Positions 11,930 through 29,077 are shown, numbered from the stretch's first letter. The stretch is 64,000 nt of DNA from Nannocystales bacterium (GCA_050633305.1 JBOEGF010000005.1:416001-480000), one strand, 5' to 3'. Numbers and translations are program-made. The notes: generated by a model not told the origin, from the sequence alone.

Positions 11930-14746
11930 ATGTGGACCACCCTCGGAACCATCTCACCTTCGAAACTCGCCGATGCCCGGCTGTCCGTGCACTGGGCCTC
12001 CCAGCTCCCCGCTGCGGTGGCTGCGGCTGTGTTGCCCCACCGCGACGACTACGCGCACACCAACCTGGGTTGGGACTCCGCAACCGGAGCGCTGTTGAGT
12101 CGAGCTCTCGGCGAGGAACGGGCGGTCTACGCTGGTTTACGCGTCCGAGACCTGAGCTGGGTCGTCGTGGAGAACGGAGAGGTTGTCGCCTCGCTCGACG
12201 CCGACGGAAAAACACTGGCGCAAGGGCAAGCGTGGTTCGCGGAGTCGGTGGGGAAGGTCTCGGGAACCGGCATCCCCTCGTTCCCGCTGTTTGAGCACGA
12301 CATGCCCGCGGCCGCTGTTGAGGGAGGCGGGGTCTTTGACGCCAAAGGCCAGGCCGCCGAACGTGCAGAACTCGCGCTTTGGATCGCCAACGCGCACTTC
12401 GTCCTCGAACGATTCGTCCGGGACGACGGGGCTGCTTCGCAGGTGCGGTTGTGGCCTCACCATTTCGACCTCGCCAGCCTGATCACGCTCGTACAGCATG
12501 AGGACGCCGAGCAAGCCAAGTCGGTGAATGTCGGCTTCAGCTTCGGTGACGGGAGCTTTGACCAGCCCTACGCATACGTCAGTCCTTGGCCGTACCCGAC
12601 CGATCGCAACGAGACTCCTGCGCTCGTGCACGGCGCGTGGCAGACCGACGGCTTCTTCGCGGCCGTTGCAACTGGGGAAGTGCTTGTCGAGGGGGGAGAA
12701 GGACAGAGTCAGCGCACCGAGCAGTTCCTCGCCCAGGCATCCAACCAGAGCCGAGCGATGCTGGGGCTGCCTTCCGCCCCTCGTCGTAGCGCCAAGCTCG
12801 TTTGGTACAAGGCCGCGGAGCCGGAGGAACTCGAAGAAGGACGGGTCAAGAGCGTCACCGCGGGCCACCGAGGCGTTTGTCTGACGCGGCACGAGGGCTG
12901 CTACTCCGCCTTGACCAACGCCTGTCCCCACCAGGGCGGACCGTTGGGAGAGGGGTCCATCGAGAAGGGCTGGCTTCGCTGCCCGTGGCACGGGTGGGAC
13001 TTTGATCCGCACACCGGCCAGTCTCCGGGGGCGCTCGAGGATGGCCTCGAGACGTTTGCAGTCGAGGTCCGAGACGACGGTGTGTACGTCGGCGTGGAAC
13101 CCGAGGACCCGCATGTGCGCGACGCGTCGGACGTCATGGCTGAGACCATGGTCGGTTGGGGGGTGAAGTGGGTGTTCGGCATGGTGGGGCACTCCAACCT
13201 TGGGCTCGCGGACGCGCTCCGTCGGCGCACCGAGGCGGGCGAGCTGGGGTACATCGGCATCCGTCACGAGGGCGCTGCATCGTTTGCCGTGTCTGCCTAT
13301 GGCAAGCTCACCGGACGTCCCGCAGCTTGCCTCGCGATCGCGGGTCCGGGGGCGACGAACCTGCTCACCGGGTTGTGGGATGCGCATGTCGACCGGGCGC
13401 CCGCGCTTGCGTTGACCGGCCAGGTGCAGTCGCAGGTCCTCGGTCGGGGCGCGTTTCAGGAGATCGATCTCGAGGCCGCCTACGGAGGCGTTGCGCAGTT
13501 CCACGCGACGGTTCTGCACGACAGCCCGTTCGCAGAGCTGATGAACCTGGCGTGCAAGAAGTCGATCTTGGGCCGCGGGGTCTCACACTTGGTCTTCCCG
13601 GACGAGGTGCAGACGCTTCCGGTCGGGGACACCCCCGCGGGTGGCCCACAAGGGCGCATGCCCGACCTCCATGTCGCTCCTGCTCCTGCTTCGCTCGATG
13701 CTGCCGAAGCGGCGCTGAAGGCCTGCAAACGCCCGGTCATCATCGTTGGGCACGGTGCGCGTTTCTCGATGGATGCCGTGCGGAGCTTCGCGGACGCCTT
13801 CGGCGTTCCGGTCGTCACCACGTTCAAAGCCAAAGGACAGATCTCCGACAGCCACCCCTTGGGCTGCGGCGTCTTGGGGCGCAGCGGCACCCCGGTTGCG
13901 AGCTGGTTCATGAACGAAGCGGATCTGTTGTTGGTTCTTGGCAGCAGCTTCAGCAATCACACGGGCATCACGGACTACAAGACCATTGTGCAAGTGGACT
14001 TCGAAGCGGATGCGCTCGGTCGCAAGCACCCCGTCTCGGTCCCGGTGCTCGGAGAGATCGGTGTCACGCTCGAAGCGTTGGGCCAACGGATGAAGGGGCA
14101 CGTTGGCTTCGAGGACCAGCGGACCGAAGTAGCCGAACGCTGGGTGCTTTGGCGGGCCGAAAAGCACAGCCGGCTCCGCGACGACATGGGCAAGGGGCTG
14201 AGCAGCGCCACCATCTTCGATGCGCTCACTCGCCTCGCGCCCAAGGACGCCATCATGGCCGTGGATGTTGGCAACAACACCTACTCGTTTGGCCGCTACT
14301 TCGAGGCCGACCAACACGCGGTGTTGATGTCGGGCTACCTGGGCTCGATCGGGTTTGCGCTTCCCGCCGCGATGGGAGCGTGGGCGGCGACGCAAGAGGA
14401 TGACCCGCGCTTCAACGGACGCAAGGTCATCTCGGTGTCCGGCGATGGGGGACTGGGGCAGTACCTCGCCGACCTCACCACCTGGGCCAAGTACGGGATG
14501 AACATCACCCACGTCCTGCTCAACAACGGAGAGTTGGGGAAGATCAGCAAGGAGCAGCGAGTGGGGGGATGGGACGTTTGGGAAACCTCCCTGCACAACC
14601 CGAACTTCTCGGAGTTTGCCAACAACTGTGGCGTGCTGGGCATCCGGGTCACAGCAGCAGACGAACTCGACACGGCCCTGGAGGCGGCCCTGGCACACGA
14701 TGGCCCCGCGCTGGTCGAGGTCATGGCAGACGCGCTGCTGTTCTAG
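11930..14746 (+). CDS. Fusion protein: DUF5996-like domain, Rieske domain and TPP-dependent enzyme (pyruvate oxidase/acetolactate synthase-like)
   Basis: N-terminal WPHHFDLA...GFSFGD...PYAYVSPWP; CPHQG...CPWHGW; RHEGAA catalytic Glu; TPP motif GDGG...LLNN. Confidence 0.88.
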   Translation: MWTTLGTISPSKLADARLSVHWASQLPAAVAAAVLPHRDDYAHTNLGWDSATGALLSRALGEERAVYAGLRVRDLSWVVVENGEVVASLDADGKTLAQGQAWFAESVGKVSGTGIPSFPLFEHDMPAAAVEGGGVFDAKGQAAERAELALWIANAHFVLERFVRDDGAASQVRLWPHHFDLASLITLVQHEDAEQAKSVNVGFSFGDGSFDQPYAYVSPWPYPTDRNETPALVHGAWQTDGFFAAVATGEVLVEGGEGQSQRTEQFLAQASNQSRAMLGLPSAPRRSAKLVWYKAAEPEELEEGRVKSVTAGHRGVCLTRHEGCYSALTNACPHQGGPLGEGSIEKGWLRCPWHGWDFDPHTGQSPGALEDGLETFAVEVRDDGVYVGVEPEDPHVRDASDVMAETMVGWGVKWVFGMVGHSNLGLADALRRRTEAGELGYIGIRHEGAASFAVSAYGKLTGRPAACLAIAGPGATNLLTGLWDAHVDRAPALALTGQVQSQVLGRGAFQEIDLEAAYGGVAQFHATVLHDSPFAELMNLACKKSILGRGVSHLVFPDEVQTLPVGDTPAGGPQGRMPDLHVAPAPASLDAAEAALKACKRPVIIVGHGARFSMDAVRSFADAFGVPVVTTFKAKGQISDSHPLGCGVLGRSGTPVASWFMNEADLLLVLGSSFSNHTGITDYKTIVQVDFEADALGRKHPVSVPVLGEIGVTLEALGQRMKGHVGFEDQRTEVAERWVLWRAEKHSRLRDDMGKGLSSATIFDALTRLAPKDAIMAVDVGNNTYSFGRYFEADQHAVLMSGYLGSIGFALPAAMGAWAATQEDDPRFNGRKVISVSGDGGLGQYLADLTTWAKYGMNITHVLLNNGELGKISKEQRVGGWDVWETSLHNPNFSEFANNCGVLGIRVTAADELDTALEAALAHDGPALVEVMADALLF

Positions 14747-16638
14747 GGGGCTGCGTCTCCTCGCTGGGGTCTTTTCGCGTTGTCGCCCTCGGCGACGAGC
14801 TGGTGTAGGTGCCAGGCCCGTACTGCGTTCTCGCGTTGTGCGGCGTTCCAGGCGGCTCGCGCTCGTCCGATGAGAACGACCGGCGTGATGATCAACCCCA
14901 GGCTACCGACCGCCAGCACGACAGGGGTAAACGTGGGGTGCAAGCCGGTGATCCCCGGTAGGATTTGGATCGAGTCCTGCGCAAAAACCGTCTGCGCCGG
15001 GATCCAGCCGAGCGCCTCGAGGACAACCGGCCCGAGAATCCCCAGAGCGCTCATCGCCGCGGCCACCAGACGCTCACGGCGATAAGGGGACAGGCTGAAT
15101 GCGACCGCCTGTCCCATGAGGATCGTGGGCAGCAGCAGGTACGGGCCGAAGAGTCGAGTCATGCTCGACAAGGCGAGCGTGCCCACCAGGATCACCAGCA
15201 ACGAGTGCGAACGAACATAGCGGTCTTGTCGAGCCGCCCACCAACTGACCCCAGCGGCGGCGACCATCAGGACCGTGGAGATGGCGAGCGACATACCGTC
15301 GCGAAGCCCCATGAGGAGCAGAAGGGGGACGTAGAACACCCAGGAGATGAAGCCGATCGCACCGTCGCGGGCGGCAAGGCGCATGTGCTCCTGGTGCAGG
15401 GCGTCGATTTCCGTGTCGGCTTCGGGGGGGAGTTCCTTCGGCGGGTGTTCGAGAAGGTCGACCATCGTTGCGATCGCGTCGCGATTGCTTGGGTCGAGTC
15501 CGAGTGCGCGGCCAATGGCTTGCAACGCCATCCCTCGAGCCTCCTCGTCCCCCTCGAGCGCACGCGCGCCGAGGCCTTGCGCGTGCTCTGCAAGCTCCGA
15601 CGCGGCGACCCGTCTCAACTCGAGGTTCTGGTCACCGTCCAAGAACGCGGTCAAGGAGGCATGAAGTGCCCGGGCGCTATGGAAACGATCGCCGGGATCC
15701 GTCGCGGTCGCACGGAGACAGATCGCCTCGAGCTCTGGAGGCACGTCGAGGTCCGGGTACCTTCGGGAGATTCTGGCGTCGGCACCGTCGATGGTCGCGG
15801 CGACGAGCGCTGCACCCGAGTCCCCGGCGTGGAGCTTCTCGAGGGTGAGGGCTTCGAACAGGACCGCGCCCAGCGCATACACATCGCTGGCACGGGTTGC
15901 CTGCTGCCGAAGCTGTTCGGGCGACGCGTAGCCCGGGGTTCCCAAGACCGCGCCGACTTGTGTCTCGTCATCGCGACTGGACGGGAGCGAAAGCTCGTCC
16001 AGCTCTGGTGCGTCTTCGATCTTTGCGAGGCCCCAGTCGAGGACGTAGACCTCTCCGTACCCTCCGAGCATGATGTTGGCGGGCTTGAGATCACGATGGA
16101 TCACGCCACGCTCGTGCGCGAAGTCGACGGCCAAGCAGACCTGGGCGAACGCATTGAGCAGTCGCCTTCGGGTGTCGGCTGGCTTGGCCGTCCCCGAACG
16201 CATGCGCCGCAAGATCTGGAGCAGGGACTCTCCCTTGACCCGCTTCATCGTGAAGTACGTTCGGCCGTCGTGTGCGCGCGACAACTCGTACACCGGAACG
16301 ATCGCCGGGTGCTCGAGTTGGCCTTGGACACGGGCTTCGCGAAGGAACCGTCGGCGTGCGGCGGCGTCGTGCTCGACTCCTTCGCGGATCTGCTTCATTG
16401 CGACCTCGCGGCCGATGACCGGGTCGGTGCACAGAAACACCTCGCCCATGCCCCCACGACCCAGCAGTTCCCGTCCCTCGTAACGGCCCCCGCGAACGGC
16501 GAGGGGCTCGTCGGCGTCCGGGTCGCTCACCGAAGTCGCGGGCGGTTGTGCCGAAAGCGCCCCGAGAGTGTCGGCTTCCGCCACGTCCGGCACAACCGTC
16601 GCGACGTCCGCGGGGGCATCCGGGGTGGGATCCTTCAC
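14743..16638 (-). CDS. Ser/Thr protein kinase with a multi-pass membrane C-terminus
   Basis: GRGGMGEV, VAMK, HRDLKPAN, DWG, GTPGYASPE; about six hydrophobic segments at the C-terminus. Start uncertain (GTG 16638 or ATG 16710). Confidence 0.92.
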   Translation of the reverse strand: MKDPTPDAPADVATVVPDVAEADTLGALSAQPPATSVSDPDADEPLAVRGGRYEGRELLGRGGMGEVFLCTDPVIGREVAMKQIREGVEHDAAARRRFLREARVQGQLEHPAIVPVYELSRAHDGRTYFTMKRVKGESLLQILRRMRSGTAKPADTRRRLLNAFAQVCLAVDFAHERGVIHRDLKPANIMLGGYGEVYVLDWGLAKIEDAPELDELSLPSSRDDETQVGAVLGTPGYASPEQLRQQATRASDVYALGAVLFEALTLEKLHAGDSGAALVAATIDGADARISRRYPDLDVPPELEAICLRATATDPGDRFHSARALHASLTAFLDGDQNLELRRVAASELAEHAQGLGARALEGDEEARGMALQAIGRALGLDPSNRDAIATMVDLLEHPPKELPPEADTEIDALHQEHMRLAARDGAIGFISWVFYVPLLLLMGLRDGMSLAISTVLMVAAAGVSWWAARQDRYVRSHSLLVILVGTLALSSMTRLFGPYLLLPTILMGQAVAFSLSPYRRERLVAAAMSALGILGPVVLEALGWIPAQTVFAQDSIQILPGITGLHPTFTPVVLAVGSLGLIITPVVLIGRARAAWNAAQRENAVRAWHLHQLVAEGDNAKRPQRGDAAP

Positions 16639-16729
16639 CGACGCATCGTAGCGCGTTGGGGCAGCGGTCGACTTCAGGTGCGGCCCATGCCCGGAAGCGG
16701 TCGATCTCATGCTAGGAATCGCTCACGCC

Positions 16730-18571: not shown

Positions 18572-18730
18572 CTCCACACGAACCGCAACGGCGATCACGC
18601 TCTTCTTCGCGGTCTTTGCTCCCGCCATCGGAGCGTGCGGCGATCCACGCCCGCATGGCCCAAAACCCTGCCGAGTGAGCTTGGCGCATCATTGCGGGCG
18701 CGGCACGGGCCAGCCTGCTACGCTTGGGCC

Positions 18731-18898
18731 GTGGTTTCGAAGGTCCTTGCGGCGATCGCTATCTTCGCAGTCGCGGCGCGCGTGTTCGTGCGCCGCGACT
18801 CCGAGATCGCGCGACGCTTCCGGATCTTCGTCAACGTCAGCCTACTGGCCATCCTGGTCCTGTACGCGACCCGGCTCGTTCAGCTCTACGTGATCTAG
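18731..18898 (+). CDS. Small membrane protein with two hydrophobic helices (55 aa)
   Basis: GTG start; hydrophobic VLAAIAIFAVAARVFV and IFVNVSLLAILVLYA segments separated by a basic loop. Confidence 0.55.
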   Translation: MVSKVLAAIAIFAVAARVFVRRDSEIARRFRIFVNVSLLAILVLYATRLVQLYVI

Positions 18899-18952
18899 GC
18901 TCTCGGCGCTGTCGGCCGGGCATGTCTAGTGCTTCTTGGGGCACTCACGCGG

Positions 18953-19711
18953 CTACTCCGCGAACCGGTGTACCGGGACCTCCCGATGTAGCCACGGTAG
19001 ATACCCGTACCGCGCCTCGAGGTCCTCGCCCTCGGGCGGCATCCAGCTGGCCACGACGACTCCGCTGTCGAGCCCGAGTTGCTCCGCGGGGTCGGAGGGG
19101 TTGGAGCGAAACTGCGCGAACTCCAGGTCGCGAAGATGCGGAGAGGCTGCAAGCGCCTCCGCCGACGCTATTGTCAGGTGGTTGTCCGCAACGGACAGCC
19201 AGCGAAGGTTCGCGGCGTGCGGCGAGTCGGCGACCAGCTGTAGGTGGAGGTCGTGCAGGCCGCAGCCGTCCATCCGCAGGGTGCGAATCTTGGCCAGAGC
19301 GGCCGAATCGGCGAGGGCCTCATCGACATCTCGTACGGCGCTCAGATCCAGATGCTGCACGGGTGCGAGGGCGTGGATCTCATCGGCGTGGTTGACGAAG
19401 TTCGACGCACTCAGCCTGATGAGTCCGACGAACCCTCGCAAAAACAGAAAACCGTCGATCCAAGCGTCGATCCCTTGCGTCCAGACGGAGCCATAGGTGT
19501 CCAAAAGCTCCTGGATGCGTTGCCGATTGCTGAGCGAGGCGGGGTTCCTTCGGTCCAGCCCGACTCCATCGAGCTGTAGGCGAATCAGCTCGCCCCGCGA
19601 TGTCCAGCTCGGGTCGGTCAGCGCGTCGCACCAAGCCGCATAGTCGAGCCGGGGCGCGTCCTCATCCGGAGACGCGAGGACCGCCGCGAGTAGTTCTGCC
19701 TCATCTGCCAT
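18953..19711 (-). CDS. TIGR02996 domain protein with LRR-like repeats
   Basis: LLAAVLASPDEDAPRLDYAAW...RGELIRLQL is the TIGR02996 signature; then F.RGFV and LxxLxL repeats (VQHLDLS, IRTLRMD, LRWLSVADN). Confidence 0.88.
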   Translation of the reverse strand: MADEAELLAAVLASPDEDAPRLDYAAWCDALTDPSWTSRGELIRLQLDGVGLDRRNPASLSNRQRIQELLDTYGSVWTQGIDAWIDGFLFLRGFVGLIRLSASNFVNHADEIHALAPVQHLDLSAVRDVDEALADSAALAKIRTLRMDGCGLHDLHLQLVADSPHAANLRWLSVADNHLTIASAEALAASPHLRDLEFAQFRSNPSDPAEQLGLDSGVVVASWMPPEGEDLEARYGYLPWLHREVPVHRFAE

Positions 19712-19766
19712 TCGTGGTCATCCTTTCCAAGTTCATCATCGACCCGTTTCGTCTGTCTTCCGCGCG

Positions 19767-22079
19767 TCACCGGTTCGGATAGGAGAACCGGACCTTTCCC
19801 TCTCGCACCAGCTTCGCGAGGAACCTCATCGAGTGCTGGGTGTCGCGGGTGTTGACCAGGGCTTGGTACCGAGCGCTCTCGCTGTACTCGCCAAACTCGG
19901 CATCGGGCATCATCGTCACCATCTCCTCCCGGTTGGCCCGAATGTCAGCTGCGAATGTTCCGAATCTCAGCGTTGCATCTGCAACCGCGCGGCGGCGTCG
20001 CCCGACGACCGCGTTGAATCGTCTCCGCCTGATGCCGCTGGCCGCGATGAACGCTTCGCTGGCCCCGCGAGGCGTCCTCTGTTCCGCTCTGAGCGCAGCG
20101 TCTTCCGCCCTGACCCGACCGCTCGCTTCCCTGAGCGCGGCTTCGGCGGCCCTGAGCTCTTCAAGCATGCCGCGAACGTCCCCGCCTGCGGTGGGAATGC
20201 AGACTGCGATCAGCTCGCGGAGGTTCTCGTAGCCATTGAGCTCTTTTCGGAAGAAGACGATGCGCTCAGCGTAGTCGGGCCGGATGAGGTATTGAACCTC
20301 TCGGAGGGTCATCGTGTTGATGTTCCTGTTGTATGTCTCGGGGATTGCTCTCCCTGGGAGGTGGCCAGGCGTCGGCGGACTCCTGAAGTACCCGTTCGCA
20401 ACGGCTGTGTTGATCGCACAAATGATGAAGCCGTCCGGCACTGCGCACTTCGGCAACGTGTCGTGGTAGTCCCACATGGCGGCGGCATCGAGAGCCTCGC
20501 CGTTCTGCCAGTCTCCAATCCCCTGACCAGGGTAGTTGTTGCTTGCAGCGCCAAGGATCCGGACGCGGCCGTTGTCCGCTTGCAACCCGACCATCCGGTT
20601 TTCGAGTTGAAGTGGAGCGAAGTTTAGCTGCCTCGCAAATGACTTCGGTTGGCCGAGCGTGTTTGACTGCTGTCCATTGGGGATGACGAGTCGGCTGTAG
20701 AGCCTGGTGGGGTTGGGATCGCCAAGCCCATAGATCACGTTCATCTGGTACTCGCCGCCGTACATCCACCATCCGTTCTCCTCGTCCAGGACTCTCTCCT
20801 GTTGAAAGAAGTCTCGAATGGTGCCCCGGGCGCCTCCCGAGCTCTGGAGCCGGACATCGACTTTGTTCGACTCCTCGTCGAACTCAACCTCGTTGAGTGA
20901 GGCGTTCTTTCCCATCCTGCCCTTGACCCCCGCTGGGAAGATGTTGCTTTCTTGGTCAGTCTCCAGGATTCCTGTGCCGTCGTAGAGGTCGCCAAGTTCG
21001 AATCGTTTGCCCAACTCGAAGGGCGGCAGCACCAGTGGGGGATGCGGCGCCCAGTGGGGGTGGCTTTCTGGGTACTGGAGAAATGTCCTGTTTCGAGGGT
21101 TGAGGAGAATTGGCGTCAGACCTGAGCGCCCGAACCAGTCCGCCGGGCAGTCGGCGTCACGGGCCTTCTCTGCTGCGTTGAGGCCCACGCCCCCACCCGC
21201 AGTGACGCAGATTCGTTCGGTGAAGTGCCAACTCACTTCATCGCGAATCGCATCGACGCCGTTCATGACCTTGCGGTTCTTCTGCTCGTCGGTCCAGTTT
21301 TCCGGCGAGATCCATGGAGGGGTTCGTGCCGCGACAATGACGTCGCTTTCATTCGGGGCAGGCTGACCTGCCGTCGGGAAGACCTGAGGGCGCCCCGGCC
21401 CCGTGCAAATGTCGATCTTCGATGCGTAGACCAACTCCGCAGTGCCGGTCGAGGGGTCGTACAGGCACAAGCGATAGGGGGCCTCGCCCGGCGGGTGGGC
21501 GGGCCATGCTCGGTGCGCTTGGACGTTGACCAGGCCGACGACACCGTCCCCACCTTCTTCATTCGCGAAGTCGCCCTCCGGGAGACCGACCTGGCTCGGA
21601 CGGCGCTGGATGAGGGCGACCCAGCGTTCTCGGGTTTGTCCCTCGGCGCCCTTGGCTCGCTCGGCCTCCGCGTCGATCCTGTCTCCAAAGTGCTGGGAGT
21701 CTAGGCCGGAGTCTTTCGTTGGCCCCGTCATCATTGCGTCGTTGTCGAAGCCTGGGAAACTCAAGAGGTGGTTCGGTTGCCCCAACCCGTGCTGGAAGTA
21801 CTTGGGCCACGGGTTCGGAAACCCGATGTGCATGATCGTCTTGCCTTCGACGCGGTTGTCGTCCGAGCGATCCGCCTGCAGTGTCGTGCTGTTGACAACA
21901 GCCATGGGTCCCCTTCCGATGATCACGTAATAGACCTCGGGCGGCTGCATGTTGATCGCGTTGACACCGCCTCCCAGCGCGGCGGCAGCCTGCACTGGAG
22001 GCGGGGCCGGCTGGACCGGCTGCGCTGCTTGGTTCCGCTGGAGCTGAGCGAAGATGTTCAGAGGATTAGCTTGACCCAT
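19767..22079 (-). CDS. Uncharacterised 770-aa protein: flavin/NAD(P)-dependent oxidoreductase-like region plus helix-hairpin-helix-like segment (candidate effector)
   Basis: Rossmann-like YVIIGRGPMA and RICVTAGGGVGLNAAE; ICTGPG; RILGAA; NINTMTLREV...AERIVFFRKELNGYENLREL resembles ComEA-type HhH. The ORF is well supported; the function is inferred. Confidence 0.7.
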   Translation of the reverse strand: MGQANPLNIFAQLQRNQAAQPVQPAPPPVQAAAALGGGVNAINMQPPEVYYVIIGRGPMAVVNSTTLQADRSDDNRVEGKTIMHIGFPNPWPKYFQHGLGQPNHLLSFPGFDNDAMMTGPTKDSGLDSQHFGDRIDAEAERAKGAEGQTRERWVALIQRRPSQVGLPEGDFANEEGGDGVVGLVNVQAHRAWPAHPPGEAPYRLCLYDPSTGTAELVYASKIDICTGPGRPQVFPTAGQPAPNESDVIVAARTPPWISPENWTDEQKNRKVMNGVDAIRDEVSWHFTERICVTAGGGVGLNAAEKARDADCPADWFGRSGLTPILLNPRNRTFLQYPESHPHWAPHPPLVLPPFELGKRFELGDLYDGTGILETDQESNIFPAGVKGRMGKNASLNEVEFDEESNKVDVRLQSSGGARGTIRDFFQQERVLDEENGWWMYGGEYQMNVIYGLGDPNPTRLYSRLVIPNGQQSNTLGQPKSFARQLNFAPLQLENRMVGLQADNGRVRILGAASNNYPGQGIGDWQNGEALDAAAMWDYHDTLPKCAVPDGFIICAINTAVANGYFRSPPTPGHLPGRAIPETYNRNINTMTLREVQYLIRPDYAERIVFFRKELNGYENLRELIAVCIPTAGGDVRGMLEELRAAEAALREASGRVRAEDAALRAEQRTPRGASEAFIAASGIRRRRFNAVVGRRRRAVADATLRFGTFAADIRANREEMVTMMPDAEFGEYSESARYQALVNTRDTQHSMRFLAKLVREGKVRFSYPNR

Positions 22080-22863
22080 GTCTTCGAAGCCTTTCGTCGG
22101 CGCTGTTTCGCTGCACTCGAGTCAGCCTTGCGTACCGCCGGATCGCGAGCAGCCCGCTGGCGTGGAGGCGCCCCGCGTGGTCGGTCGGGTTCTCCGCCGT
22201 CCGACGCTGCACCGCGCGGGACGCCCAGGGGTGGAACGGGTCCTGGTCGAAGCCGCGACCCAGCAGAAACATCAGCATCACCCAGACACCGACACCTGCG
22301 TTCGTGGTCAGCCCGTGTGCGTGTGTCAAGGAACGACCGTGTTCGATGAGCTGCTGAACTGCGGGCTCGCCGAGCAGTTCGTACTTGGGGCGGAACATTA
22401 GGCCGAGAAGTTGGTGAAGCCCTGGGTCGTCTTCGCTGTGTGCCGCAATCTCGTCGAAGTCATGGTGGAGCACCCACGCCAGTGCCCGTCGGTACAGGGC
22501 TCCGTCGGGACCGATCATGGGCTCCATTCGGGCAGCCGAGGTCGCCAGCAGGGCGGCCATGGCGTCTCTGCGGTTGGCGGCGTTGTGCTTGCGCAGGCTC
22601 GCGCCGGCCCACGGTAGCTGCGGGTCTTCGTCGAAATGGACCCCCAGCAAGACCATCAGGCTCACGAAGGCCGATACGTCGGCCTGCGCGTGAAAACCAT
22701 GTCTCTGTGCACGCGCAATCCCGATGTCGACGGCCGCACGCGCGCCCGGGTCGGTGAGCACCAAGCAGTGTTGTGGAAAGTGAACCCAAAGGTCCTCGAG
22801 GACCGCCTCGCGCGTCTGGATGTGCTTTGGGGTCCCCGATTGGAGTGCTTCGTGTTGGGTCAT
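22066..22863 (-). CDS. Hypothetical protein with an internal duplication (possible effector chaperone/adaptor)
   Basis: Two similar units: GIARAQRHGF...LMVLLGVHFDEDPQLPWA and GRSLTHAHGL...LMFLLGRGFDQDPFHPWA. Overlaps the next gene by 14 nt. Confidence 0.75.
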   Translation of the reverse strand: MTQHEALQSGTPKHIQTREAVLEDLWVHFPQHCLVLTDPGARAAVDIGIARAQRHGFHAQADVSAFVSLMVLLGVHFDEDPQLPWAGASLRKHNAANRRDAMAALLATSAARMEPMIGPDGALYRRALAWVLHHDFDEIAAHSEDDPGLHQLLGLMFRPKYELLGEPAVQQLIEHGRSLTHAHGLTTNAGVGVWVMLMFLLGRGFDQDPFHPWASRAVQRRTAENPTDHAGRLHASGLLAIRRYARLTRVQRNSADERLRRHGSS

Positions 22864-22877
22864 CGGCAGGCGCTCCG

Positions 22878-23525
22878 CTACGCGTTCCCGGCATGAACGG
22901 CCGACAGGGCGGCGACCGTGGCCTGGTCGAGCTCCCCGGTGGGGTCGAGTTCTTGGACCCGCTGAAACCGCCGCAACGCAGCGGCGGTTGCGTCGTCGAG
23001 TGTTCCGTGGGCCTGGCCCTCGTAGTAGCCGAGGTTTGCCAGGCGGGCCTGCGCACCGTCGACGTCTTCGGTCGGGTTGAGCGTTCGTGGTGAGATGTCG
23101 TAGACCCGCTCCTCGTCTCCCTCGCCGACCCGCAAGATGACCTTGGTCAGGTCCGGCGGGACATACACTTCAACAACTCCGTTCGCGTCTGTCGTCCCGG
23201 CAAACGTCTTCCCGCTGTGCTCGAGGGTGTAGTCGAGGTTGGCGAGCGGTTCGTCGCACTCGAGCAGCTGAAGACGCAGCATCTCCGGTACCCCTTTGAG
23301 CTCAAAGCGATGGAGCTTCCCCGTCGGGCAGGTTTCTTCGCGCGGCTTCAGGGGGGGGATCTGCACGATGTCCCCGGGCTTGAGGACGAAGGGGGTGTCA
23401 CGCGTGGCCTTGAGTTCCGCGTTGGCGGGGTGGGACCACAGCGACTCCCAGAAAAAGCCGTGTTCGTAGGCGATGCTCGACATGCACTCGCCTTGTTGGA
23501 CCGTGTGTTTCTTCGTGGAACTCAT
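22878..23525 (-). CDS. LysM-like, transthyretin-like and peptidoglycan-binding (PG_binding_1) domain protein
   Basis: HTVQQGECMSSIA...LKPGDIVQIP (LysM-like); EPLANLDYTL...GTTDANG; QARLANLGY...TAAALRRFQ...TGELDQAT (PG-binding). No signal peptide. Confidence 0.88.
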   Translation of the reverse strand: MSSTKKHTVQQGECMSSIAYEHGFFWESLWSHPANAELKATRDTPFVLKPGDIVQIPPLKPREETCPTGKLHRFELKGVPEMLRLQLLECDEPLANLDYTLEHSGKTFAGTTDANGVVEVYVPPDLTKVILRVGEGDEERVYDISPRTLNPTEDVDGAQARLANLGYYEGQAHGTLDDATAAALRRFQRVQELDPTGELDQATVAALSAVHAGNA

Positions 23526-23560
23526 CGGGACAGACTTCGTTGGTGTTGCGAAACGACTCG

Positions 23561-24103
23561 TCACAGGGGTTCGGCGTGGACGTAACTCCAGGCCTCGCTG
23601 TCGAATTCAGGGAACGACACTTTGCAGGTACCGGCCTTTCGGATTTCCCGAATCTCGGCCCGTCCGTCGTGGTCGAGGCTGCCGCTGTGGGTTCGGCCGG
23701 CGGGGTCCAGGAGGCGATACGCGGCTCCGGCGATGGGTTCGTCCAGGGCGTTGACGAGCTCGAGCACAACGGCGTGGAGCGGAACTTCGTCCTCGTTGTC
23801 GTCCTCGGGGAGCAGCGCGGTGAGGTCGGTCGGTGCGGATGACCCCTTGGCTGACCCCGCGGATGGATGCCAAGCGACGTACTCGAGCTCCCCGCAGGCG
23901 AGGGCTCGCATCGCCTTTTCCGCGATGCGATCACCGGATTCGACCCACGCGTTGAGGAGGTTTGCGAGCGCTCGGGCGCCCGAAACGGTACTCGCGAACT
24001 CGCGGACTTCGAGCTCAACCTGGCGTGGCACATCCACGAATCTCCGGAACGGACTTCCCGAGACTTGGAGGGCGCCGAACCCGAGTTGCAGGCGTCGAAA
24101 CAT
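23561..24103 (-). CDS. Hypothetical protein with a C-terminal transthyretin-like module
   Basis: LELVNALDEPIAGAAYRL...SGSLDHDGRAEI...GTCKVSFPEFD resembles the extensions seen on VgrG/PAAR-associated proteins. Confidence 0.7.
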   Translation of the reverse strand: MFRRLQLGFGALQVSGSPFRRFVDVPRQVELEVREFASTVSGARALANLLNAWVESGDRIAEKAMRALACGELEYVAWHPSAGSAKGSSAPTDLTALLPEDDNEDEVPLHAVVLELVNALDEPIAGAAYRLLDPAGRTHSGSLDHDGRAEIREIRKAGTCKVSFPEFDSEAWSYVHAEPL

Positions 24104-24502: not shown

Positions 24503-25774
24503 TTGAGCCTCGACCAGGAGAGGCCCCCGCCGCATGAGCTGCCTATGGGCGAGCCTGCCGTCGACCAATCCGAAGCGCTTCAGCGGCTCTACGAAACGTT
24601 CCCGTACCCAAGGGAGGTTTCCGGCCTCGACGACTTCAAGGCGGGCAAGCGGCAGCCGATCTGGAACCCCAAGACCAGCTACTCGGTGTTCTTTCCGGAA
24701 TCGAAGCCCCGTGCGGACCTCGATATCCTCGTCGCCGGGTGTGGAACCAACCTCGTCCCCGTGTTCGGCGCCTTCATGCCCGAGGCGCGAATCGTTGGGG
24801 TCGACATCTCGACCGCCTCGCTGGAGATCAGCGCCGAACAGTGCGCCTCGAATGGCATCGCCAACGTCGAGCATCGAAGGCTCCGCCTCGAGGAGGTCGC
24901 ATCGCTGGGAGAGAGCTTCGACTTCGTGTGTTGCACAGGCGTGCTTCACCACCTCGAGGACCCCGTCGCCGGGCTGCGGGCACTCGGCGACGTGACGCGG
25001 CCCGATGGCGCGATCATGGCGATGGTGTACGCCCGGTACGGTCGGCAGGGCATCTACATGCTTCAGGAGCTGGCGACGATGCTGGGCCTGCGTATCGACG
25101 AACTCAGCGCAGCCAAGACCCAGAAACTCCTCGCCTTGCTGCCTGCGACGCACCCCTTCCGGGCGGTCTACCGTGAGGTCGGAGAGATGATCAGCATCGA
25201 GGAGGTGATGGACATGATCCTCAACCCCCGGGACCGAAGCTTTCGGGTTCACGATGTTCGGGACCTGGTGGACGGCGCTGGGCTCCGCTTCCATCGCTGG
25301 CTCGGCAACGCGCCCTACTTGCCGGAGATGACGGCGCTGGGGCAGGCAGGTCTGCTACCCGAAGCCGACGCGCTTGGGCCTTGGGACCGGGCCGCCGCTG
25401 CCGAGCTGGCGTTTGGGAACATCATCAAGCACAGCTTTGTCGTCACCCATCCCGGACGAGAGAGCGCCGCGGAGCTGTTCGAGGGAGCCGCGCTCCTCGA
25501 CGCGTATCCAGCGTTGTCGACTCACCTCAGGGTCGAGCATTCCGGAGCGAATCTGGTCGTCACCAACGAGGGCCATGCGGTGCCGATCCAGACGGCCGCG
25601 CCGGTTGCCGAGATGGCCGCGTTGCTCAAGGCGTGCGACGGCAGTCGGACCGTTGCCCAGTTGGCCTCTGCGCTCGGGGACACGGTGGTCTCCGCATACC
25701 GGCATCTGTACAACGCGGATGCGATCACGCTTTCGCGGGTCCCGTGCGTCACACCGACGTCTGCACCTCGCTGA
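24503..25774 (+). CDS. Class I SAM-dependent methyltransferase with C-terminal winged-helix-like extension
   Basis: YETFPYP, ILVAGCGT, VGVDIS, FDFVCCTGVLHHL, PDG; C-terminal CDGSRTVAQLA. Start TTG 24503 or ATG 24546. Confidence 0.9.
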   Translation: MSLDQERPPPHELPMGEPAVDQSEALQRLYETFPYPREVSGLDDFKAGKRQPIWNPKTSYSVFFPESKPRADLDILVAGCGTNLVPVFGAFMPEARIVGVDISTASLEISAEQCASNGIANVEHRRLRLEEVASLGESFDFVCCTGVLHHLEDPVAGLRALGDVTRPDGAIMAMVYARYGRQGIYMLQELATMLGLRIDELSAAKTQKLLALLPATHPFRAVYREVGEMISIEEVMDMILNPRDRSFRVHDVRDLVDGAGLRFHRWLGNAPYLPEMTALGQAGLLPEADALGPWDRAAAAELAFGNIIKHSFVVTHPGRESAAELFEGAALLDAYPALSTHLRVEHSGANLVVTNEGHAVPIQTAAPVAEMAALLKACDGSRTVAQLASALGDTVVSAYRHLYNADAITLSRVPCVTPTSAPR

Positions 25775-25911
25775 GTGCTTCGGAGCCGTCCCACAGCGCG
25801 TCTGGACCCGGTGCATCAGCGGCTGGGGCAGCGTGCGCTGTGGTCTCCGACTGCGGTCCGAGCATCGAGCGCTTGCGTGCCGTCGCCGCGCGACGCTACC
25901 GTCCGAGCGCC

Positions 25912-27879
25912 ATGCTGTCCCACGCTGCTCGTCTCTGTGTTGCCGCGCTGCTGGTCTCGACGACCGTCGGCGCCTGTGATTCGACCAAACCCGCCCCCAA
26001 GGCGACGAAGCCGGATGCGGAGGCAGCCGACAAGGCGGCCGCCGACGCGAAGGCCGTCAAAGATCAGGCGGCCAAGCGTGTCGCGATCGACCCCAACGGC
26101 AAGGCGGGGAAGAGCCCGTTCGAGAAGAAGTCGGACAAGACGCCCGAGCAAGCCAAGACGTTTGCGGAGAAAACCGACAAAGAACTCAAGGAGCTTTGGA
26201 CGCGCTCGGCCAAGGCACAGTGGACCAAGGCCACGGACATCACCGACGAGCACGACAAGGCCGCCGCGCTGCTCACCGCAGAGGTGATGGCGTACGAGAC
26301 CAAGGCGATCGCCGAAGCTGCGACGTTCGATGGCGTGAAGGCCGAGCCGGACGTTCGTCGGCAGATCGACCTCCTCAAAGTCTCGAGCACCGTCCCGGCT
26401 CCCGACGACGAGGTGAAGCGGAAGCAGCTCGCCGACATCACATCAAAGCTGGAGAGCACCTACGGCAAGGGGAAGTTCTGCACCAATCCCGACGACGACA
26501 AGACCTGCAAGGACCTGGGCGAGCTCTCCGACGTATTGGCGACCAGTCGGGACTACGACGAGCAGCTCGCGGCCTGGGAGGGCTGGCGCACGATCTCCGT
26601 GCCCATGAAGGAGGACTACACCAGGTTCGTCGAACTGGGGAACGAGGGTGCCAAGGCGATCGGATTCTCGGACATGGGCGTGCTGTGGCGCAGCCGATAC
26701 GACATGTCCCCAGAGGCGTTCGAGCAGGAGATGGACCGGTTGTGGGGGCAGGTCAAGCCGCTGTACGAGCAGCTGCACTGCCACATTCGCGCGTCACTGA
26801 GCGAGAAATACGGTGCCGACAAGGTCCCCGCCGACGGCATGATCCCCGCGCACCTCTCGGGCAACATGTGGACGCAGGACTTCATCAACCTGTACCCGAT
26901 GCTCGAGCCTCACAAGGGGCAGCCCAGCATCGACGTCACCAAGGCGCTCAAGAAGAAGAAGACCACCGAGGTCGAGATGGTGAAGATGGGCGAGGCCTTC
27001 TTCACATCGATGGGCCTCAACCCGCTGCCGGATACGTTCTGGGAGCGCTCGATGTTCGTCAAACCGAAGGATCGTGACGCCGTCTGTCATGCCAGCGCGT
27101 GGGACGTGACCTCGAACAACGATCTGCGCATCAAGATGTGCATCAAGATCAACCACGAGGACCTCGTGACGATCCACCACGAGCTTGGGCACAACTACTA
27201 CTACAACAACTACTTCACGAAGCCGGTCCTGTTCCAACAGGGCGCGCACGACGGCTTTCACGAGGCGATCGGCGATGCCATCGCACTGTCGATCACACCG
27301 AAGTATCTCAACGAAATCGGCCTTCTCGGGAAGGTCTCCGAGAGCGATGAGGCGGTGGTCAACAAGCAGATGCAGGACGCGTTGGCGAAGATCGCCTTCC
27401 TGCCGTTTGGCAAGATGATCGACCAGTGGCGCTGGGACGTGTTCTCCGGGAAGGTGAAACCCGAGCAGTACAACGCGCACTGGTGGAAGCTTCGCGCCAA
27501 GTACCAGGGGGTCATGCCGCCGACGGCGCGCTCCGAAGAGCACTTCGATCCCGGCGCGAAGTACCACATCCCCGCCAACACCCCGTACGCCCGCTACTTC
27601 ATGGCGCACATCCTTCAGTTCCAATTTCACAAGGCGATGTGCCAAGCCGCCGGGCACGAAGGGCCACTTCACACCTGCTCGGTCTACGGCAGCAAGGAGG
27701 CCGGCGCGAAATTGGCCGCCATGCTGGAGATGGGCAGCAGCCAGCCGTGGCCTGATGCGCTCGAGAAGCTCACGGGAACGCGCGAGATGGATGGCGCTGC
27801 GGTCGTCGAGTACTTCGCGCCACTCATGGGATACCTGAAGGAGCAGAACGAAGGTCGCAGCTGCGGCTGGGATGGTTGA
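25912..27879 (+). CDS. M2 family metallopeptidase (ACE/peptidyl-dipeptidase A-like), lipoprotein
   Basis: Lipobox VGAC; PAHLSGNMW, CHASAW, HHELGH, FHEAIGD, DPGAKYH, PYARYF. Confidence 0.95.
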   Translation: MLSHAARLCVAALLVSTTVGACDSTKPAPKATKPDAEAADKAAADAKAVKDQAAKRVAIDPNGKAGKSPFEKKSDKTPEQAKTFAEKTDKELKELWTRSAKAQWTKATDITDEHDKAAALLTAEVMAYETKAIAEAATFDGVKAEPDVRRQIDLLKVSSTVPAPDDEVKRKQLADITSKLESTYGKGKFCTNPDDDKTCKDLGELSDVLATSRDYDEQLAAWEGWRTISVPMKEDYTRFVELGNEGAKAIGFSDMGVLWRSRYDMSPEAFEQEMDRLWGQVKPLYEQLHCHIRASLSEKYGADKVPADGMIPAHLSGNMWTQDFINLYPMLEPHKGQPSIDVTKALKKKKTTEVEMVKMGEAFFTSMGLNPLPDTFWERSMFVKPKDRDAVCHASAWDVTSNNDLRIKMCIKINHEDLVTIHHELGHNYYYNNYFTKPVLFQQGAHDGFHEAIGDAIALSITPKYLNEIGLLGKVSESDEAVVNKQMQDALAKIAFLPFGKMIDQWRWDVFSGKVKPEQYNAHWWKLRAKYQGVMPPTARSEEHFDPGAKYHIPANTPYARYFMAHILQFQFHKAMCQAAGHEGPLHTCSVYGSKEAGAKLAAMLEMGSSQPWPDALEKLTGTREMDGAAVVEYFAPLMGYLKEQNEGRSCGWDG

Positions 27880-27955: not shown

Positions 27956-28036
27956 CGCGTCGTGAATCACTTGGTGTGAGCCAGCCCTTTCTCGCGAACC
28001 CCGAACCCGGTTATGTTCCGGGGCTTCGGGGTTCTT

Positions 28037-29077
28037 ATGCGTCGCGTTTGTCTTGTCGTTTCTTGCATTGCTGTACTCGGGCTCGGGTGTAGCTCCGAGG
28101 TGATCAATCCGTTCTCCAGCGCCACGATGGGCGCGATGGAGAGCAGCTCGGGCGCAGCGCCCGACTCGACTTCGGGCCCGCGGACGACAGGGATCAGCGG
28201 GGCCAGCATCAGCGCGAGTGGTGGGTCGACGACAGACGACGCATCGTCGAGCACCGCGTCTTCAGGCCAGGTGGATTCAAGCTCGACCACCGTGGTCGAA
28301 ACGACCACCGGAACTGTCGACGAAACAACCACTGGCGGTGTCGATGAGACGACCACCGGTGTGATCGACGAGTCGACATCGTCCTCGTCGAGTTCCAGTT
28401 CGTCGAGTTCCAGCTCGTCGAGCTCCAGTTCGTCGAGCTCGAGCTCCTCCACGGGGGACGCCTGCGACCAGCCTCCCACCGACTACGATGACTGCTTCAA
28501 CTCGGGCAACGGGGTTTGTGATGAACCGAACTCCACATGCCTGCTCGACGACGTGATGGCCCCGACCCATGGCGCTTGTGCGGCGCTGGAGTGCGTCGAG
28601 GACTGCGACTGCCCTGCAGCTCCCGATACCGGGACGGCCGAGTCGGTCTGCGGGGACATTTTGTCCGGAGGCGGCACGGCTTGTATTCTCGATTGCTCGG
28701 GCGGTGCGACGTGTCCCGATGGCATGAACTGCATCGGCAACCAGGTGTGCATGTGGCCCGACTTGGTCTGCGACGACCCGCCGCCGGAGGGCGTCTATGG
28801 CGACTGCCTCACCGAGGGCAACGGCGTGTGCAACAACTTGTCTGCGACCTGCCTGCAAGACGACACGATGGCCCCGACCGTGGGCGTGTGCGCTCCGCAG
28901 GGGTGTGAGACGGACTGCGACTGTCCTGCGGCCCCCGCAACCGGAGACGCGACCGTATCGTGTGGGACGATCGTGGATGGTGGCGGGAATGCCTGCTTCC
29001 TCAGCTGCTCCGCGGGCGAGACGTGCCCCGACAGCATGGTCTGCTTCGACGACTTCCTGTGCATGTGGATGCCGTAG
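28037..29077 (+). CDS. Cys-rich lipoprotein: Ser/Thr-rich stalk plus two tandem 14-Cys domains
   Basis: Lipobox LGLGC; poly-Ser/Thr linker containing 15-bp tandem repeats near 28385-28445; two ~100-aa repeats with the pattern C..DCDCPAAP..G...C......G..C...C....CPD.M.C.....C.W. Confidence 0.88.
   Translation: MRRVCLVVSCIAVLGLGCSSEVINPFSSATMGAMESSSGAAPDSTSGPRTTGISGASISASGGSTTDDASSSTASSGQVDSSSTTVVETTTGTVDETTTGGVDETTTGVIDESTSSSSSSSSSSSSSSSSSSSSSSSSTGDACDQPPTDYDDCFNSGNGVCDEPNSTCLLDDVMAPTHGACAALECVEDCDCPAAPDTGTAESVCGDILSGGGTACILDCSGGATCPDGMNCIGNQVCMWPDLVCDDPPPEGVYGDCLTEGNGVCNNLSATCLQDDTMAPTVGVCAPQGCETDCDCPAAPATGDATVSCGTIVDGGGNACFLSCSAGETCPDSMVCFDDFLCMWMP

Follow-up and report, generated by a model that had tools for sequence, protein, structure and literature searches.

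The subject of this analysis is a five-gene cassette at positions 18,953 to 24,103 of a 64,000-nucleotide stretch of a Nannocystales bacterium genome (JBOEGF010000005.1:416001-480000), the whole of which is called the window. The cassette is probably an orphan cargo cassette of a type VI secretion system (T6SS), carrying a flavoenzyme toxin together with an immunity protein that would occlude its cofactor site; this confidence covers the toxin, the immunity protein and the T6SS, and the exact chemistry of the toxin is rated lower. The five genes, here g1 to g5, are co-oriented on the minus strand with spacings of 35, 14, -14 and 55 nt, just as an earlier sequence-only reading had claimed. The putative toxin g4 (P0004, 19767..22079, 770 aa) has a flavoprotein core at residues ~46-565, a helix-hairpin-helix (HhH) domain and a helical insertion. 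It is followed by g5 (P0005, 18953..19711, 252 aa), the probable immunity protein, in which TIGR02996 is combined with ribonuclease inhibitor (RI)-like leucine-rich repeats (LRR) and an acidic hairpin. Upstream lie three putative adaptor genes. The first, g1 (P0001, 23561..24103, 180 aa), has a variable N-terminus and a C-terminal beta-sandwich module of ~65 aa, transthyretin (TTR)-like or immunoglobulin (Ig)-like, and g2 (P0002, 22878..23525) encodes 215 aa from its ATG (228 aa from an alternative GTG start at 23564) arranged as LysM, beta-sandwich and PG_binding_1. The third, g3 (P0003, 22066..22863, 265 aa), is an all-helical unit duplicated in tandem.

An AlphaFold2 model of g4 built on an alignment of 46 sequences (pLDDT 84, pTM 0.86) confidently predicts a flavoprotein fold with two dinucleotide-binding sites, for flavin adenine dinucleotide (FAD) and NAD(P)H. 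The best structural match is the bacillithiol reductase YpdA/Bdr (7a76; Z 17.6, rmsd 3.0, 304 aligned residues, 14% identity), followed by thioredoxin reductase (TrxR; Z 16.6), flavin monooxygenases (FMOs; 16.2 and 15.7), FzmM (14.2) and SidA (13.6), and the top ranks in Foldseek were taken by SidA and PvdA (E 1e-10 to 2e-9). The FAD Rossmann motif, a second NAD(P) motif, two xTG-type motifs and the overall fold of this superfamily are all present. The FAD-binding glycine motif (residues 53-60, 21900..21923, minus strand) stands at the start of the flavoprotein alignments, with G55 and G57 in 90 of 92 relatives. The strand that binds NAD(P), with its glycine loop (residues 289-304, 21168..21215, minus strand), where g5 is predicted to dock, has G296 in 90 and N301 and E304 in all 92. 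In NfnI and the glutamate synthase small chain, the broad g4 profile aligns this segment to the NAD(P) motif, the second of the two. Conservation in 87-92 of the 92 extends to W91, H97, G100, Q101, D223-C225-G227, G297, G469, R507 and N562. The sequence-only reading had called g4 a novel enzyme of 770 aa. The length is correct and no catalytic family was found by Pfam or NCBIfam for g4, nor for g1 or g3, but the fold itself is recognisable.

Three better known families were considered for g4. The redox-active CxxC of TrxR sits before the NADP strand; no Cys is among the commonest residues at positions 269-280, so the motif is not seen. The fingerprint of FMOs is FxGxxxHxxxY/F, and the equivalent stretch here reads R-x-x-x-N-G, with no FMO-like or Lys_Orn_oxgnase match in the 46 members; yet a protein without the fingerprint may work like a class B FMO. 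Membership of the YpdA/Bdr family was rejected on the lack of an NCBIfam match at E<=1 and the 14% identity to 7a76. Without the CxxC, the FMO fingerprint or a curated YpdA match, g4 is a member of the superfamily that stands outside the TrxR, FMO and YpdA families. Its own family comprises 344 clusters at 50% identity (E<=0.001), the named relatives belong to Myxococcota and Acidobacteriota, and a search of the ESM Atlas returned generic Pyr_redox clusters.

The second line of evidence is the partner. For TIGR02996 g5 scores 37.7 bits, above the cut-off of 29.05, and there are weak LRR matches besides, so the identity first given to it is borne out. Co-folding of the two proteins had also been proposed, and g4 (residues 44-630) with FAD and g5 scored 0.89, the best of three controls reaching 0.00. 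Among solved complexes 116 of 157 reach this mark, and among mismatched pairs 2 of 215 do, a calibration that is rough here because our own alignments were used and a FAD ligand, itself unscored, was included. At least 90% of contacts recur between the runs, and the partner pLDDT is 89 or more; no close solved relative was found for either chain. This model supports binding of g5 to g4. In it, the g5 hairpin (residues 211-223, 19043..19081, minus strand) is predicted to reach with Asp215 into g4's NAD(P) pyrophosphate loop. The lowest-error contacts join g5 215 with g4 296-299 and 469-470, and the best-defined ones set the hairpin against two parts of g4, the glycine loop at 294-299 and the motif at 467-471; R318 and 547-550 belong to the interface too. 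All 24 close g5 sequences have an acidic residue at position 215 (D in 22, E in 2), and most of the nine distant g5 homologues show an acidic-Gly turn. We infer that the hairpin would shut NAD(P)H out of g4 by mimicking its phosphates, which in turn implies that any harmful activity of g4 would need NAD(P)H turnover.

The pairing of the two genes is also seen outside this genome. Starting from g4, 30 outside loci were found (12 in genomes and 18 in metagenomes), and a g5-like gene adjoins g4 in 25 of them, the five misses being contigs that end inside g4. A toxin-side search, which left out three genomes with sequences in the profile as well as matches at contig ends, gave a g5-like gene 0-4.4 kb downstream of the g4-like domain in 18 of 19 wider regions. 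Genes of the g5 type are rare, the g5 query having matches in 10 of 401 genomes of the phylum, and six of nine distant g5 homologues adjoin a g4-like domain. Within the host genome TIGR02996 has two matches, both abutting g4 paralogues. A second full g2-g3-g4 cassette is present there (G000:C38:151234-155447), with 37-51% identity, a convergent g5 and a g4 with a Cys-rich start. Elsewhere, distant g5 genes standing apart from any g4-like neighbour (L058, L060, L062) are possible orphan immunity genes.

Delivery by a T6SS is suggested by the neighbourhoods. The examination of homologous loci for vgrG and PAAR that had been recommended showed vgrG, PAAR, DUF4123, DUF2169, TssG and TssH next to relatives of the cassette, and vgrG, PAAR or DUF4123 lies beside 11 of the 30 loci, eight confirmed by Pfam (L008, L009, L011, L013, L014, L016, L018, L021) and three found by tblastn (L031, L034, L036). 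As had been foreseen, the secretion machine is encoded elsewhere in the genome: contig C18 carries TssM, TssL, TssE, TssF, TssG, TssH, TssC and Hcp. VgrG matches fall on eight contigs and PAAR was also found, but contig C5, to which the window belongs, has zero matches to either, in keeping with the earlier statement for the window. The delivery module with a toxin and a TIGR02996 immunity protein that had been put forward is thus supported, and no outcome accessible by computer overturned it.

Several observations weigh against the toxin-immunity-T6SS reading. Among the toxin-side regions L116 has no g5-like gene and the match in L112 is weak, while three of the nine distant g5 homologues are without a g4-like neighbour. 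The loci are not independent, nor consequently are the pairing counts, because several are kin: three come from Sorangium, L015/L026 and L031/L034 are near-identical and L119 is the contig of L010. Convergent toxin and immunity genes, the usual arrangement in this family, are atypical for T6SS pairs, and the DUF4123 gene of the genome lies apart from the cassette, on C11. The mean conservation of the predicted interface is no higher than that of the rest of the proteins (0.42 vs 0.45 for g4 and 0.52 vs 0.61 for g5), with the exception of the g5 hairpin and the core of the g4 glycine loop. Finally, the available DNA of 19 of the 30 loci, many of them short, contains no T6SS gene. This last count could also be read in favour of a flavoenzyme that is no toxin but serves metabolism or biosynthesis, as an N-hydroxylase or disulfide reductase, with g5 as its regulatory subunit, the T6SS neighbours being due to insertion in variable islands. 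Indeed the closest solved folds are those of housekeeping or biosynthetic enzymes, and no precedent for a flavin or FAD, oxidoreductase or NADPH-oxidase toxin was found in the titles and abstract openings of the open-licence literature, where supplements could still list family members. Nevertheless the ORF (open reading frame) lists of the loci have no recurring biosynthetic neighbours, and the distribution of the g4 domain is patchy, with none of three other genomes of the same genus and 23 of 300 genomes of the class matched by the broad profile. Moreover the domain is fused to g2 and embedded in multi-toxin giants. With these points in hand we hold a non-toxic role to be most unlikely.

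Most distant copies of the g4 domain reside in the giant proteins, whose frames measure 2,000-5,000 aa or more; two frames followed upstream reach roughly 5,000 and 7,600 aa when joined. They also carry ADP-ribosyltransferase (ART), transglutaminase, RelA/SpoT-like, deaminase-like, annexin and eCIS_core (DUF4157) domains, the latter named after the eCIS (extracellular contractile injection system). Giant myxobacterial proteins with the flavoprotein domain were noted at L061/L064, L057/L065, L055, L059 and L102-L118. In its sequence context, g4 behaves as a polymorphic-toxin domain. A weak search in which none of 8000 candidates was a longer fused form is contradicted by these giants and by g2 fusions found otherwise.

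For the three upstream genes the evidence points to roles as adaptors. The description of g2 as a LysM and peptidoglycan-binding protein holds (PG_binding_1 E 4e-15), the LysM match being weak (E 0.04). It is present in 21 of the 30 related loci, and P0126 and L096/L120 are natural fusions of it with the g4 domain; by its associations g2 is a putative carrier, and a marker, of effectors. The host genome has five g2 paralogues, three of which precede S8, Amidase_2 or OmpA/C39 proteins, and these loci are probably further orphan effector cassettes. One stands before a 1153-aa S8 peptidase protein (L002 5229-9365), one before a 599-aa Amidase_2 protein and a g1 paralogue (L004 7186-10181), one before a NAGPA/OmpA/C39 cluster (L005 2332-9523) and one after an 874-aa ORF of no assigned family (L003 8780-9436). 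The middle domain of g2 and the module of g1 are the same beta-sandwich (hhalign 89.5%, E 2e-6). Residues 82-137 of g2 resemble the TTR domain of VgrG (6sjl_A; Z 6.6, rmsd 2.3, 55 aligned) as well as the TTR domain of carboxypeptidase D (Z 6.2) and Ig-like domains (Z 7-8). The transthyretin-like module reported for two of the genes is therefore a shared sandwich to which the label fits, but the label is not specific since many Ig-like folds score equally. The g1 module recurs beside relatives, and L021 joins it to PAAR in one protein (PAAR_motif E 1e-10); g1 is a probable spike-side adaptor.

The duplication noted earlier in g3 is real, its halves being homologous (hhalign probability 99%, E 5e-18), and the gene lies upstream of g4 in 17 of the 30 loci. 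In L011 and L013 a single-unit relative comes after DUF4123, and one structural alignment from the Atlas places 109 residues of g3 on a DUF4123 cluster, in its part outside Pfam, though short of the bar of the tool. For g3 the ESM Atlas gave unnamed clusters only, and PDB sequences yielded no significant match to the profiles of g1 and g3. The probable role of g3 is that of an effector-binding co-chaperone resembling the C-lobe of DUF4123 or co-TecT. Other single-unit relatives, in the host genome, stand before large ORFs that are candidate effectors: one of 898 aa is a protein-arginine deiminase (PAD E 3e-54), and two more, of 822 and 894 aa, are unannotated (L069 6814-9983; L067 6807-10243; L007 8463-12140).

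Many relatives of g4 begin with MG and a Cys at positions 3-5 (30 of 92 members, against 5 of 2571 ATG-started ORFs on the large contigs of the genome), a start that we take to resemble the dual-acylation (myristoylation/palmitoylation) signals of eukaryotes. A PROSITE-type myristoylation pattern matches 17 of 92 members and 18 of 2571 background ORFs. Other members, such as P0085 and P0105, have a hydrophobic anchor-like start or MG followed by a run of lysine and arginine. These starts suggest repeated acquisition of membrane-targeting N-termini among the relatives of g4. They also raise the possibility that the family is mainly anti-eukaryotic, directed at amoebae, fungi or other micro-eukaryotes, with MG-Cys as a host acylation signal that places the enzyme on host membranes, g5 as a storage inhibitor and a window copy that has lost its Cys. 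The annexin domain of the giant proteins, listed among predicted anti-eukaryotic eCIS domains in the text of Geller et al. 2021 (PMC8213781), fits with this. However, the tag tracks g3: it is present in 16 of 17 g3-linked loci, the window being the exception, and in 0 of 9 loci without g3, so it may instead bind g3 or bridge a metal. This tally dropped loci with unresolved starts (L017 and L030, both g3-linked, and L012, L015, L019 and L028), and a Fisher test (P 3e-6) was set aside since kin are not independent; the same kinship inflates the counts of the tag. In addition several members keep the Cys but lose Gly2, and a dedicated immunity gene is typical for antibacterial toxins. We therefore regard a mainly anti-eukaryotic family as distinctly unlikely, and the Cys tag as either a host acylation signal or a tag recognized by g3, a family with a conserved His-Cys of its own. 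The window copy of g4 has no MG-Cys tag, and the paralogue on C38 starts with a Cys-rich one.

The cassette lies between pepF (Peptidase_M3/M3_N) and a methyltransferase gene, the flanks first assigned to it, which Pfam matches confirm, in a host genome of 11 Mb and 66% GC; together with the named relatives of g4, this points to a myxobacterium as the probable host. The third-position GC (GC3) of its genes, 0.76-0.81, is normal for coding frames, the flanking genes being a little higher (0.82-0.85). The highest 19-residue Kyte-Doolittle (KD) mean ranges from 0.84 to 1.52 across the five proteins, so that in this hydropathy scan no hydrophobic h-region or transmembrane stretch appears. A sigma-70 promoter scan gave 0 sites, and terminator-like sites were at chance level. 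Compared with the close relative L024, the flanks are 82-84% identical and the cassette about 70%, and g5 in the window is inverted exactly at its ORF ends. Since no convincing inverted repeat flanks g5 in the window or in L024, a recombinase-type invertible switch was rejected. Misassembly of the g4-g5 junction was ruled out because an independent contig (X2 record 11), which spans 18878-20988 without a joint and differs in 97 letters over ~2.1 kb, has the same orientation. The co-oriented gene order on which the first interpretation leaned is thus real here but atypical: g5 is convergent in 23 of the 25 paired outside loci, the others being co-oriented downstream (L010) or upstream (L019). 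Convergence elsewhere and inversion relative to L024 together indicate that the tidy operon of the window is a derived state, g5 having been inverted in this lineage.

The inverted g5, the lost Cys tag and the lack of a nearby vgrG might be taken as signs that a toxin-immunity pair survives in the window as a decaying or silent orphan cassette, or, given that distant versions travel with DUF4157/eCIS_core, that an eCIS-like particle delivers it instead of a T6SS. All five frames are intact, though, with the core motifs all retained, the same arrangement is found in an independent strain, and short-form relatives are linked to T6SS genes rather than eCIS genes. Both variants are, in our opinion, very unlikely, and a working cargo cassette of a T6SS is the reading that we follow below.

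According to this reading g4 would act in the cytoplasm of the target cell as an FAD- and NAD(P)H-dependent redox enzyme, as its modelled fold suggests. It would be bound by g3 as a co-chaperone, and g2 and g1 would tether it through their beta-sandwich modules to the VgrG/PAAR spike of the T6SS on C18, in line with the linkage and the fusions observed. The producer would be protected by g5, whose Asp215 hairpin is predicted to mimic the dinucleotide phosphates and plug the NAD(P)H site. As to chemistry, there is a nearly even chance that g4 is an uncoupled NAD(P)H oxidase, draining reducing power and making H2O2 or superoxide. A monooxygenase whose substrate is a metabolite, or nucleic acid reached through the HhH domain, is plausible but less favoured. 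A low-molecular-weight thiol redox enzyme like YpdA seems improbable, and some other chemistry equally so.

The HhH domain of g4 (residues 584-626, 20202..20330, minus strand) is ComEA/EEPD1-like by profile (EEPD1 E 3.5e-6, ComEA E 0.06). HHH_3 reaches E<=0.1 in 24 of 46 family members and is under the curated cut-off in g4, and the conserved hairpin glycines of DNA-binding HhH domains of the ComEA type do not appear in the alignments to ComEA/EEPD1, though the structural signature shows. Next to it, residues ~635-760 (19800..20177, minus strand) form a hairpin of two long helices in the model. It is a lineage-specific insertion, weakly shared by all three close relatives compared, and precedes the terminal Tyr767, which is nearly invariant in the family.

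Some other features of the region can be mentioned. A 62-codon hydrophobic ORF without Pfam match (18710-18898, plus strand) lies between pepF and g5 in a region conserved in L024, and a membrane Ser/Thr kinase gene (14743-16710, minus strand) is missing from the same spot in that relative. On the other side are, on the plus strand, a bacterial angiotensin-converting-enzyme-like peptidase (25381-27879, Peptidase_M2, E 2e-227) and a protein with a Ser/Thr-rich linker and repeated Cys-rich domains (28013-29077) that resembles a myxobacterial surface protein.

To our knowledge, contact-dependent toxins act through the folds of nucleases, hydrolases, transferases or pore formers. A redox warhead that depends on flavin would, if true, be a new chemistry in interbacterial warfare. 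TIGR02996, an uncharacterised domain for which the titles and abstract openings of the open-licence literature gave 0 papers, would gain a testable function, with the precise prediction that a single acidic residue blocks an NAD(P)H site. In addition g2, with its LysM, sandwich and PG-binding domains, can serve as a marker for finding more effectors in myxobacteria and acidobacteria. A wider picture can be drawn tentatively, and is as a whole rather doubtful: a superfamily of flavoenzyme redox toxins that hits the NAD(P)H pool or oxidises some universal substrate, is shuffled across T6SS cassettes, g2 fusions and eCIS-type giants, nearly always has a TIGR02996-LRR inhibitor blocking the cofactor site through phosphate mimicry, and has in one branch a eukaryote-style acylation tag at the N-terminus by which it would become a trans-kingdom weapon.

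Among known systems, YpdA/Bdr (7a76), TrxR, class B FMOs and the N-hydroxylases (SidA, PvdA, FzmM, SmFMO) have the same fold as g4 over about 290-330 residues (Z 13.6-17.6). In contrast to them, g4 has 10-14% identity, no curated family match, no CxxC, an added HhH domain, a toxin-type context and a predicted dedicated inhibitor. Tse6 with Tsi6, and Tne2, are reportedly NAD(P)-consuming glycohydrolases of the ART fold whose immunity proteins place an acidic residue in the NAD(P) site. Both this way of inhibition and the dinucleotide pool as target would be shared by g4, but g4 is a putative flavin redox enzyme with a predicted LRR inhibitor. Polymorphic toxins with Imm-LRR (Zhang et al. 2012, PMC3482391) have a toxin domain shuffled among delivery modes and an LRR immunity protein, roles that g4 and g5 would fill: LRR are present in g5, which adjoins the putative toxin gene. 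In the available text of that article, a TIM-barrel aldo-keto reductase is the one oxidoreductase among the toxins mentioned, the term 'FAD' is absent, and LRR immunity appears alongside toxins of the type V secretion system (T5SS). The DUF4157 proteins, described in the text of PMC8213781 as long carriers of C-terminal toxins, are comparable in that DUF4157/annexin giants contain distant g4-domain copies, whereas g4 in the window is a stand-alone cargo protein; neither 'FAD' nor 'oxidoreductase' occurs in the main text of PMC8213781. The closest parallel in organization is given by the T6SS cassettes with DUF4123 (Tap/TecT), in which, as far as the text of Colautti et al. 2024 (PMC11582642) describes them, the effector-binding part of DUF4123 is its helical C-lobe, which may have a gene of its own (co-TecT). 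On the present reading adaptor genes precede the toxin in both, an immunity gene apparently without signal peptide follows, the all-helical effector-binding lobe can be a separate ORF, and relatives of the window cassette adjoin vgrG-DUF4123. The window cassette differs in having no DUF4123 N-lobe, a duplicated helical unit and an added g2 carrier that is sometimes fused to the toxin, and the immunity gene of the g4 family is usually convergent. The new part would be the class of warhead, and the cassette would otherwise work like an effector-immunity module of T6SS cargo.

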